DNA of 64,000 nucleotides from the IMG/VR virus record IMGVR_UViG_642979322_000011; one strand, written 5' to 3'. Shown here one piece after another: positions 6,001 to 9,000 of this stretch; the first letter of the stretch is position 1; every line of letters begins with the position of its first letter. This DNA comes from a virus (Duplodnaviria; Heunggongvirae; Uroviricota; Caudoviricetes). A program made the position numbers.

Positions 6001-9000
6001 AGTAGGGGTGGTGCTCTGAAAACCACGATAGAGGGTAGTTGATAGATAGTGTTGATTCTGGAAGCTGAAGTTGTTCTGGGATTTTTTGACTGAAATAGCA
6101 GTCTTCCAGTTTTTCGAACACTTCCCACGCCCGATCGGTTTCGAGCATTTTTGCGTGACGGGCTGCGCCGCGTTCTGTCCAGAGGATGAGGGAGCGAACG
6201 TTACGGGCGATTTTCACAGAGTAGTTAAAAGCTACTCTGTGCTTGAACTCACGTAAAGTTTCACCTTCAAGTTTGAAGAAGTGTTTTTCCTCAATGAAAC
6301 GACCTTTGTTTTCGTGGTGATTCTGGCGAATACGAATAGCTTCTGTGCCGTAAAGGTGCGCCAAAAGTTCGGTAGTGATAACGGGGATCTGCTTGTAAGT
6401 AATCGTGGAGAGTGTTTCAACAGAAACTTGAGTTGTCATTATGACGCCCTCGAGTGGTTTCTAAACTATCACCACCGTTAGGTTCGAATCATCGGGTGGT
6501 GAGACGTACAGGGTTCGAACTACCGGGAAACCAACCGGCGAGCTTTTCAGCTCCCCTATACGCCCCACCATAATTCAGATGTGCGCGTGCATACGACAAT
6601 AAAAAACACGCTCGCGGCGTGTCTCTGTCGCGGTTTCTATCCGGGGTTCGAATCCCGACGGTCAACTCGACCGTGCGAAGAATATAATCCCGGATATGTG
6701 TTGTCGTCAACAAGTGGCGTGCTATCATCGAATAGTGTTCTATCCTACTCAGTGAGGTTTAACATGCGTACAACCCAACAATTCAGCATTACATTAACCA
6801 ACGAAATGGCTGACATGGTGCGCGCCCGTGTGGCTTCCGGTGCATACGCTTCAGAAAGCGAAGTTATTCGTGAAGGGCTTCGTGCACTGAATGAACGCGA
6901 CAAAGCAATGGAAGCGTGGTTAATACACTCAGCCGCGCCGCCACTCGACGCTATTCGTGAGAACCTAGGCAAAGGGCACTCCATTTCACAGGTTCGCTCT
7001 GAGATTCGCGCCCGGAAGTAATCTGCATGGCATATGAAGTGCCACACTAACAAACTGCTCCAGGTATGGGAATAGTGTCACTTGCAGCACCTATTAGAGA
7101 TCCGATAATGAACATCATAGCAAGGTTCTTTTATTTGATAATTTTCTGCATGGCAACATCAGGATGCACTACCACTACGAAAATAAATCGCGGAGATGAA
7201 AAGGAACAGTACATCATTGCCTGTGGTGCCGCTACACCATGGGGAGTATGCTATGATAAAGCCAATGCCCTATGTAAAAATGGATATAAAGACATTTTAA
7301 AGGAACAGGGATTTAACAGGAAAGAATTAACCATTGAGTGTAAATAAGGCCATCATTTGCAACGTTGAAAAAATTCGCCCGTGCTACAGGGAAAAAACTC
7401 CAGATCCGCTTCGTTTAACTACGAGGATTACCACTAATGGCGATGTTTACCCCCCCTCATCCTGGAGAAATTATTGCTGATATTCTGGAAGATCAGAATA
7501 TTGGAATCAGGGAACTGGCAAGAGCGCTTGATGTCGCGCCTTCCACTGTTCAGCGACTGGTTTCAGGTAATGCGACAATATCTCCTGAAATGGCTGTTCG
7601 TCTCGCTGCTGTCCTGGGGGGAACTCCGTCTTCATGGATTCGTCTCCAGACGGCATGGAGCCTTGAAAAAGCGGAAAGAGAAGTTGACGTATCTCATCTC
7701 TCAACAAAATACCGCCCGGCAGAAATTTCGCCTCATGCTTAACCACCGCGCCGTCATTCTGGCGGCGTCGGAGAGTGGAGGATATCAGGTTCCGAATTCT
7801 GCGTTGTTCTCCGCGTCCAGGATTTCTTCAATCTTCCGTACTCCCCGATTATTGTATCGGAAGCTTTCTACCTGCTTATCCGAATACGGGGATTTGTCGA
7901 TGAACCATTTCCCGTATTGTTCGGTTTTGAGCATGTAGGTATTGGCAATGCGACCAACCTTGTTAGCGGATATTTTGAGTTTTGCTCCAACTTCTGACGC
8001 CGAATAGTAATGTTCATTAATCATCGGTAGCGGGATTACGTTAGCGCCTACAACGGGATTAACCAGGCTGGCGGCAACGACTTGTTTAGCTTCAGGGGCA
8101 AGGTTGGGGAGGAAGCCGAAAAGGTCTTTCATTGTATCGACGGTCATTTTCAGCGCCCGTGCTTTACGGAATTCCTCAAGGCCGTTAGTCGAATGTTTCG
8201 AGGTGATTTTTTGTTGCAGTTGCTGTTGCATTGACTCCAGTTGATCGACCAGCGAACGACGGACGGATTTAGATTCACGAGCGGCAACCCGAAGCGCTTG
8301 TTTATAGGTCATCACAATAACAACCTGATCCGCACCGCCTTTTTTCTTATCCATGGGGGTTACGAAAATTTCGTAACCCCCCCCCATCAAGTTCATCTTT
8401 GATGCGTGCAATGAAGTCGTTGTTGCGTACTTCTTTTTCACCGCACAGTCTCCGCGCTTCATTCACCATTTTCAACAGAGCCTGGCTGTCGATAGTTCCA
8501 TTTTTCATTACATTATTTTTCATCGTTTTAACCTCTCAAGCTCGCCGTAGCGAGTTCAGATAAAAGAAATCCCCGCGAGTGCGAGGATTCTTATTCACCT
8601 TTGACCAAGTTGCAGGTTAGCCACGGTTAACCTCCTGCGGCGGTTCTGGTAGCGGCATCCAGTGAGTTGCTTGCTCAATACCATTACCCGGCTTAATCGT
8701 TGCATCTCCGCGCCGAAAGGTGCTTCCGGTATAGCGTGCGGAGCATATTAGCGGTTCAACCAGAGAGCTATCGAAATTCACCGAAATAAGCACGTTCTGG
8801 CCCTTTTCAGGCATTCGATCACTACAGCTTATCCAACTATCCGGAGTTACCGGAGAGTTACCAGCCTCATAAGCGGATTTCATCCAGTGCGTAAGCGTTT
8901 CGATGCTTACACATCCGCAATCAACGTCTATTTTTTCTTTTTGTTCTGACAACCATTCCTGGAATGACAGCTTGGCAGTCTGGCTTGCTGGATCAATTCG

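Follow-up and report, generated by a model that had tools for sequence, protein, structure and literature searches.

Results

A probable mosaic of toxin-antitoxin cassettes

The 64,000-nucleotide (64-kb) stretch of viral DNA in IMG/VR record IMGVR_UViG_642979322_000011, termed here the window, contains a plus-strand island of three genes, which encode a ParD-family ribbon-helix-helix (RHH) antitoxin, a cysteine-rich lipoprotein and a HigA-family helix-turn-helix (HTH) antitoxin. The island is probably a mosaic produced by recombination at an accessory slot that is hypervariable among lambdoid prophages, in which the toxin genes were lost by cassette replacement. The slot adjoins the upstream end of an isrK-C4-antirepressor cassette that is transcribed away from it, and sibling prophages fill the slot with intact toxin-antitoxin (TA) loci, namely parDE, higBA or a RelE-like toxin paired with an HTH antitoxin. 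Four segments can be delimited.

~6699-7040, segment A: parDE promoter, parD and 14 nucleotides (nt) of parE
7041-7349, segment B: tail of a BamE-like gene and the lipoprotein gene
7350-7418, segment C: tail of an HTH antitoxin gene
7415 onward, segment D: tail of higB, then higA

At each junction either a toxin gene or a promoter-proximal part was lost, and the neighbouring antitoxin was spared. The genes, remnants and promoter-like site within these segments are as follows.

6701-6728, plus strand: parDE promoter-like site, TTGTCG-16-TATCAT with TG, from a promoter scan
6764-7021, plus strand: parD, intact orphan RHH antitoxin gene, 85 residues, assigned with Pfam and TIGR02606
7027-7050, plus strand: 5' remnant of parE, homologous over 7027-7040 (first 14 nt), the frame running to a stop as MAYEVPH
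7041-7097, plus strand: 3' remnant of a BamE-like lipoprotein gene, 18 codons, ATLTNCSRYGNSVTCSTY and stop, found by tblastn
7108-7347, plus strand: cysteine-rich lipoprotein gene, 79 residues, signal peptide at residues 1-19, lipobox Cys20
7350-7418, plus strand: 3' remnant of an HTH antitoxin gene resembling gp21 of phage 75/02, 22 codons and stop, PSFATLKKFARATGKKLQIRFV and stop
7415-7437, plus strand: 3' remnant of higB, 23 nt, last six codons NYEDYH and stop, from homology to intact higBA
7437-7742, plus strand: higA, intact orphan HTH antitoxin gene, 101 residues, assigned with TIGR02607

The original prediction had described three genes with a promoter of their own inside a run of minus-strand genes. 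All were found at coordinates that are exact or within one base, and they form the sole plus-strand coding block of ~3.4-19.2 kb, a region of minus-strand early genes where the long open reading frames (ORFs) are all on the minus strand, in agreement with the RefSeq annotation of an identical copy. It had also offered the possibility that two TA loci decayed around an acquired lipoprotein. Intact parDE and higBA in relatives, breakpoints placed at the nucleotide level and the P22-like character of the lipoprotein segment support the substance of that proposal, while its cause and its count require correction, to deletion or cassette replacement in place of point decay and to at least four cassettes in place of two; the gene remnants at 7041-7097 and 7350-7418 had been overlooked. 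The statement that no described system could be assigned still holds, since the island appears to be a mosaic and not a system.

The parD segment and the parE stub

ParD exceeds the curated cut-offs of Pfam ParD_antitoxin PF03693 (32.7 bits; cut-off 21) and TIGR02606 (53.4 bits; cut-off 46.2), in agreement with the family first proposed for it, and in Pfam it matches ParD_antitoxin and not the Arc/Mnt family PF03869. The promoter-like site at 6701-6728, likewise part of the first description, is the only plus-strand site of its kind that the scan returned within 6300-7900. It is conserved where parDE is intact, in Salmonella (L012) and in E. coli O111 (L057), and homology to the parDE cassette has its left end at ~6699. 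The scan for plus-strand terminator-like sites inside the island returned none. Five nt past the parD stop, the lipoprotein frame reads MAYEVPH-stop, a peptide that had been likened to a truncated ParE N-terminus. Salmonella ParE begins MTYEV at the same 5-nt spacing after parD and the DNA homology continues to 7040, which identifies the peptide, as judged from these alignments, as a true parE remnant.

The closest ParD sequences outside E. coli belong to Salmonella prophages, are 85% identical and have an intact ParE partner. In one of these prophages (L012), the order is ORF6N on the minus strand followed by parD-parE on the plus strand, the intergenic length is as in the window (~325 nt) and ParE is intact, with 99 residues starting MTYEVIITPEAEQQ. 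DNA identity between this locus and the window is near-continuous through the promoter and parD until ATGGCATATGAAGT, with none beyond. This parD is present in 365 complete E. coli genomes. In 323 of them it is 80-90% identical to the window gene and is followed by an intact RelE/ParE-family toxin gene, the alignments of all 323 stopping at window position 7040, while in the other 42 of the 365 parD is an orphan with at least 99% identity to the window. A ParD homologue in Sphingomonas has a ParE gene next in line, and Yersinia has parD with a frameshifted parE, adjoining isrK-C4, which marks an independent toxin loss. A tblastn search for ParE recovered the 14 nt at 7027-7040 and nothing further in the 64-kb window. 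Compared with the Salmonella allele, the ratio of nonsynonymous to synonymous substitution rates (dN/dS) of ParD is 0.04 in the N-terminal RHH domain and 0.38 in the C-terminal tail, the toxin-binding part in this family, where 12 of 33 positions differ. The Salmonella prophage L012 has an unusually dense cluster of addiction modules at 2080-4563 of its contig, with hok/sok, higBA and parDE within 2.5 kb around one ORF6N/isrK-C4 cassette.

The lipoprotein segment and its P22-like origin

The ORF at 7108-7347 encodes the predicted 79-residue lipoprotein, complete with signal peptide and lipobox; the N-terminus reads MNIIARFFYLIIFCMATSG up to the lipobox cysteine, and the signal peptide ends MATSG. 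Homologues P0002 and P0003 start at the equivalent of the ATG at 7108, and the PGAP start, GTG at 7075, would overlap the remnant of another gene. That remnant, at 7041-7097, is identical at 14 of 18 residues (tblastn, E=4e-6) to a 150-residue protein of the P22-like contig L003, which has a weak Pfam BamE match and a lipoprotein signal, and window DNA aligns to the contig from ~7050 on. In P22-like podophage contigs, an 82%-identical homologue of the window lipoprotein is encoded between the tailspike and gp16 genes, behind the 150-residue BamE-like lipoprotein. The P22-like alignment and the BamE-like tail therefore suggest capture of only the distal gene of an operon for two lipoproteins, which arrived without a promoter of its own. 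A short GCCATC match is present at the right-hand junction of the segment.

A second close homologue (81% identical; contig L005) is translationally coupled to an 85-residue Arc/Mnt-family gene (Arc E=1.6e-18), with arc and a Bro-N antirepressor gene transcribed divergently from it, which is the classical layout of the P22 immunity I (immI) region. A distant homologue in a Salmonella Lederbergvirus sits between gp16 and Mnt, where P22 has sieA-orf59a-mnt (PMC10883804). A profile search collected 267 representatives, mostly of 70-100 residues, from across the Proteobacteria, and the close relatives among 5.8 billion proteins comprise three clusters only. An alignment of 34 members shows five invariant Cys, that of the lipobox and four others, near-invariant A52, P57, G59 and Y60, and freely varying signal peptides; this pattern supports a lipidated, disulfide-bonded mature protein. 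Comparison with the P22-like copy of L003 gives a dN/dS of 0.11 for the mature part, indicating purifying selection, and of 0.60 for the signal part. AlphaFold2 produced a confident small β-β-α-β-β domain (predicted local distance difference test score, pLDDT, 88). By the Lol rule of E. coli, lipoprotein sorting is set by residue +2, here Thr, and the protein is accordingly predicted to be exported, lipidated at Cys20 and sorted to the outer membrane, with two disulfides.

No family was assigned to the lipoprotein by Pfam, NCBIfam or PADLOC, its PHROG matches are all of unknown function, and a Pfam scan of the 34 family members returned nothing other than lipid-attachment-site matches. Comparison of the fold gave no informative match, and neither sequence nor fold similarity was detected to the characterised superinfection-exclusion lipoproteins Cor, Llp and Ltp. 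An IMG/VR scan with the lipoprotein alignment yielded seven 100%-identical copies of the same phage and nothing else. Of the other two island proteins, ParD likewise had no PADLOC match and HigA had just weak generic HTH matches (E≥3e-4).

Among 26 genomic loci of the lipoprotein family, four have a BamE-like lipoprotein gene as neighbour, and in Buttiauxella and Leclercia the homologue adjoins a podophage ejection-protein gene. Judged by these positions of its homologues, our best guess is that the lipoprotein has an envelope, lysogenic-conversion or exclusion function; the more specific exclusion or defence role suggested at the outset is a guess.

In the Buttiauxella and Leclercia prophages (L029 3670-5088, L030 4001-5070, L032 3649-4210), the ejection-protein gene adjoins a run of as many as four genes for small secreted proteins or lipoproteins, encoding a 106-residue secreted protein, the cysteine-rich lipoprotein, a 130-residue lipoprotein and the BamE-like lipoprotein. 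Two tandem paralogues of the family, the second apparently frameshifted, are present at 3573-4172 of contig L053, whose label, Thermoleophilaceae, is surprising because the members of this lipobox family are proteobacterial elsewhere.

The HTH-antitoxin tail, the higB stub and higA

HigA scores 87.2 bits with TIGR02607 (cut-off 47.7), which confirms its family. The stop codon of the higB stub overlaps the higA start (TAATG), the usual higB/higA overlap. Homology to the higBA loci of E. coli G1/2 and 05-3629 begins at 7415, and G1/2 HigB ends in ILNYEDYH. The original prediction correctly reported that no HigB-sized ORF precedes higA, and missed the last six higB codons at 7415-7437. More broadly, its view that neither antitoxin gene has a toxin partner agrees with the search of the 64-kb window, in which no HigB-, ParE- or RelE-like coding sequence and no toxin-sized ORF was found elsewhere.

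The G1/2 prophage is syntenic with the window (DUF1382, MT-A70, a hypothetical gene and an identical ORF6N protein), has BRO-N and DUF551 genes on the far side of the slot, and holds intact higB (92 residues) and higA within it. In 05-3629, intact higB-higA adjoins ORF6N in the nin region. Homology of the window to both loci ends just to the right of the isrK promoter and resumes at 7415. The window higA is 99% identical in nucleotides to the higB-linked allele of G1/2, with one amino-acid difference in the protein.

The intervening segment at 7350-7418 matches gp21 of Shigella phage 75/02 Stx at its 3' end, with 96% nucleotide identity and with all 22 of the last 22 amino acids identical, and gp21 is the partner of a RelE/ParE-family toxin. 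This HTH tail and the higB stub are joined through a 6-nt microhomology, TTAACT. In E. coli SCU-104 the slot comprises a RelE-like toxin, a different HTH antitoxin allele and an orphan higA with a different junction. As a direct intermediate SCU-104 was rejected, since both the HTH allele and the junction differ, and its arrangement is read from the sequence as an independent, parallel loss of higB. With the window parE, the higB of the window lineage and the Yersinia parE, at least four independent toxin losses in which the antitoxin was kept are thus recorded in this slot.

Proposed history and present working of the island

Successive cassette replacements would have removed each toxin gene and left the two antitoxin genes intact, and one of them would have brought in the distal gene of the P22-like two-lipoprotein operon. 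Events that keep a toxin and delete its antitoxin would be lethal and were never seen, and a survivorship filter of this kind is the simplest explanation; rearrangements that keep the toxin alone would kill the cell, and orphan antitoxins would therefore accumulate. Orphan antitoxins are abundant in E. coli (PMC10790755).

At present the island would constitute one toxin-free operon, parD-lipoprotein-higA, read from the parDE promoter. ParD-family antitoxins repress their own promoter, and at this locus autorepression by ParD would hold the operon at a low steady level. The alternative half of the original prediction, in which the lipoprotein is now under the control of the DNA-binding proteins, is likely for ParD alone, and in a structural sense only, because the native upstream region of the lipoprotein gene is gone and the parDE promoter-like site alone remains. 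For HigA, the promoter region of G1/2 higBA, which would carry any HigA operator, is replaced in the window, and HigA therefore probably has no cis target; it would be carried along as a passenger or act in trans to give immunity against incoming HigB. The lipoprotein is plausibly the only likely selected cargo. In the island genomes higA has a single place, as has parD among the matches listed, and these genomes therefore appear to hold no closely related intact copy.

Neither the components nor the phenomenon is of a new kind, orphan antitoxins and prophage lipoprotein morons being known already, and no new mechanism is required.

The isrK-C4-antirepressor cassette on the opposite strand

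The island as originally drawn left out the cassette that lies directly upstream of it on the minus strand, where the 324-nt gap upstream of parD houses two RNAs, isrK and C4 (6492-6674). RNA homologues were called by the Rfam gathering score.

6681-6710, minus strand: isrK promoter-like site, TTGACG-18-TATATT, 10 of 12 matches in the scan
6601-6674, minus strand: isrK-type leader/small RNA homologue, RF01394, 53 bits against 50, E=8.8e-10
6492-6575, minus strand: C4 antisense RNA homologue, RF01695, 70.1 bits against 45, E=7e-13
5762-6439, minus strand: ORF6N-domain antirepressor-like gene, Pfam ORF6N E=1e-19, phrog_1760 over its full length E=1.6e-122

By these matches the neighbour is identified as an RNA-controlled antirepressor cassette of the P1 immI/Gifsy-1 type. 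In Gifsy-1 the whole isrK-orf45-anrP unit, antirepressor-like gene included, is driven from PisrK (PMC4825925). In the window the isrK promoter is placed back-to-back with that of parD, and their -35 hexamers (6705-6710 and 6701-6706, respectively) overlap. The pair isrK and C4 adjoins TA cassettes in six related loci, and the -10 element of the isrK promoter and a TGTCAA core are conserved across five loci that carry different cassettes. The back-to-back geometry recurs for parDE, higBA and relE-HTH cassettes, in E. coli, Salmonella and Yersinia and with three antirepressor types.

A 36-residue ORF at 6571..6461 (minus strand) overlaps the C4 region and may correspond to orf45 of Gifsy-1. In the O111-type parDE loci L057 and L058 (~2440-2566), which have no scoring isrK or C4, the upstream stretch resembles the isrK 5' hairpin with its -10 and -35 elements; on sequence grounds this suggests that the parDE cassette arose beside isrK and carried a piece of it along.

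Alternative explanations

The overlap of the two promoters raises the question of whether ParD is a switch protein. It could act like Mnt of P22, silencing isrK-C4-ant in the lysogen and driving the lipoprotein gene, with HigA or the HTH antitoxin formerly in the same role and toxin loss leaving a pure regulator. Such a switch would be in keeping with the back-to-back -35 hexamers, with the geometry and TGTCAA core that isrK-C4 has kept for three TA families and three antirepressor types, with the coupling of the L005 lipoprotein homologue to a true Mnt/Arc-family gene divergent from arc-ant, with an RHH half of ParD that is almost invariant while the toxin-binding tail diverged, and with the joint move of ant, isrK-C4 and the island into the nin region of O22:H8 strain 154. 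However, ParD falls outside the Arc/Mnt family, a repeat finder detected no inverted or direct repeat of at least 8 nt in 6660-6790, and morons often insert at transcription boundaries, which gives the same geometry. Palindromes with 4-5-nt arms, such as TGTTG-N4-CAACA at 6699-6712, were noted by eye only. This explanation was the first to be favoured and was downgraded on two observations, that at the two parDE loci examined among the 323 intact-parDE E. coli genomes (L057 and L058) neither isrK nor C4 scores and no antirepressor gene adjoins parDE, and that most isrK-C4-ant cassettes (VT2-Sakai, Gifsy-1, APSE) are in co-directional operons with no divergent regulator; we now consider it unlikely. 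A wider proposal, to which little credence is given, has TA promoters wired to the isrK-C4-antirepressor promoter with the antitoxin as an Mnt-like maintenance repressor; on shedding its toxin, ParD would have become a dedicated regulator that silences the antirepressor and has the lipoprotein expressed, and the lipoprotein, as the founding member of an outer-membrane, disulfide-rich group, would exclude superinfecting phages, possibly at the BAM (β-barrel assembly machinery) complex in view of its recurrent BamE-like partner and of BamA being the receptor of short-tailed Stx phages. If true, such wiring would link antitoxin stability to prophage induction.

Retention of the antitoxins might instead reflect service in trans, orphan ParD and HigA being kept to neutralise ParE and HigB of other prophages, plasmids or host TA defences, and orphan antitoxins have been described both as anti-addiction factors and as phage counter-defences (PMC10790755, PMC11825919). 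Intact parDE (323 genomes) and higBA (~40 genomes) do circulate in lambdoid prophages of the same species, the window HigA is one residue away from a higB-linked allele, and the island genomes are without their own copies of these toxins. Nonetheless, with 12 of 33 tail positions changed from the Salmonella ParD, cross-neutralisation is uncertain, the island is too young to show selection, and survivorship alone accounts for antitoxin retention, which leaves this possibility improbable. That the lipoprotein is itself a toxic or defence effector under two antitoxin-like proteins, a three-component module suggested in the original prediction, would fit the place of its gene where parE and higB would be. 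This is very improbable: remnants of four cassettes between the ORFs indicate an accidental, recent adjacency, homologues occur without an antitoxin-like neighbour in P22-like phages and at 26 diverse proteobacterial loci, PADLOC gave no match, and the trio is found only as near-identical copies. The lipoprotein as a toxin was rejected on the remnant junctions and on the antitoxin-free contexts of the homologues.

Several observations sit less comfortably with the mosaic of cassette replacements that we prefer. TA cassettes are placed at the isrK promoter in fixed geometry in three genera, so that the antitoxins may do more than autoregulate. The island of O22:H8 strain 154 was transferred whole to another region of the prophage, which hints at some function of the block beyond accident. 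All island copies are at least 98.6% identical, because of which selection on the orphan genes since toxin loss is unmeasurable, and these genes may be simply young debris. The lipobox has an atypical residue, Thr, at position -3. The single parD-lipoprotein-higA transcript from the parDE promoter, as well as its control by ParD, is probable on the evidence of sequence alone.

Comparison with characterised systems

The island resembles type II parDE and higBA loci in that its ParD and HigA are above the curated family thresholds and that the promoter, the 5-nt parD-parE gap and the TAATG higB/higA overlap are as in the intact loci of relatives. In contrast, parE and higB are cut to 14 and 23 nt, and two orphan antitoxins of different families share one putative transcription unit with a foreign lipoprotein gene between them. 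With P22 immI (sieA-orf59a-mnt/arc-ant) the island shares an RHH gene and a prophage-expressed envelope gene divergent from an antirepressor operon with overlapping promoters, here through the -35 hexamers and with an ORF6N antirepressor-like gene downstream of isrK-C4; close and distant homologues of the lipoprotein occupy the P22-type slot, one of them directly behind an Mnt-like gene. It differs in that the RHH protein is of the ParD family, the antirepressor arm is controlled by the isrK-C4 RNAs and lacks Arc, the lipoprotein is unrelated to SieA and the regulatory link is putative.

As in the c4-icd-ant region of P1/P7 immI and in isrK-orf45-anrP of Gifsy-1, and also in VT2-Sakai and APSE, isrK and C4 precede an antirepressor-like gene, here on the minus strand. 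The characterised examples have no divergent partner, whereas in the window, and in some Salmonella, Yersinia and E. coli prophages, the isrK promoter is back-to-back with a TA promoter. Like Cor, T5 Llp, TP-J34 Ltp and Bor, the lipoprotein is a small secreted lipoprotein of a temperate phage, encoded at an accessory position that is probably expressed in the lysogen.

If the mosaic history is correct, the island provides a worked example, at the nucleotide level, of how orphan antitoxins originate, through serial cassette replacement at one hotspot where only toxin-deleting events survive, and the example resides in Stx2a phages of clinical E. coli O157:H7. Two leads follow from it. One is an unnamed lipoprotein family, widespread in Proteobacteria and phages, that occupies the sieA/mnt slot of P22-like phages. 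The other is the recurrent back-to-back arrangement of TA and isrK-C4 promoters which, if functional, would tie antitoxin turnover to induction and thus to Shiga toxin release.

Prophage context and adjacent features

The region 6400-8100 is 100% identical to several chromosomes of O157:H7 and other Shiga toxin-producing E. coli, and to many Stx2a phage records, including PA2, PA8, F765 and VT2phi_272; the window is an Stx2a-converting lambdoid prophage of E. coli. A search of the literature on Stx2a phages for HigA, ParD and the lipoprotein found no paper that discusses the island. Its left end is marked by two features.

1746-1820: tRNA-Arg(CCT), marking the left end of the prophage
1941-3185: integrase ORF, at the prophage left end beside tRNA-Arg(CCT)

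In NZ_CP027325 a 100%-identical island belongs to a prophage whose integrase abuts sapC (L001 3571-4800) and not tRNA-Arg(CCT), and in O22:H8 strain 154 it sits in the nin region. The island is thus found at different prophage sites and in different genome regions and therefore appears to circulate among prophages.

A gene convergent with higA, at 7785-8523 on the minus strand, matches the C-terminal part of antirepressor PHROG 1726. Relative to the intact 245-residue protein of NZ_CP027325 it is frameshifted near a G-run at ~8356-8390, which could be a sequencing error, phase variation or a pseudogene. Between this gene and higA, a GC-rich hairpin at 7745-7772 (CGCGCCG...CGGCG; -20.6 kcal/mol, z -2.07) has no U tract. 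The same hairpin recurs 3' of gp21 in phage 75/02 (L019 ~2575-2610) and, from its position after both higA and gp21, may be a common 3' boundary element of the cassettes.

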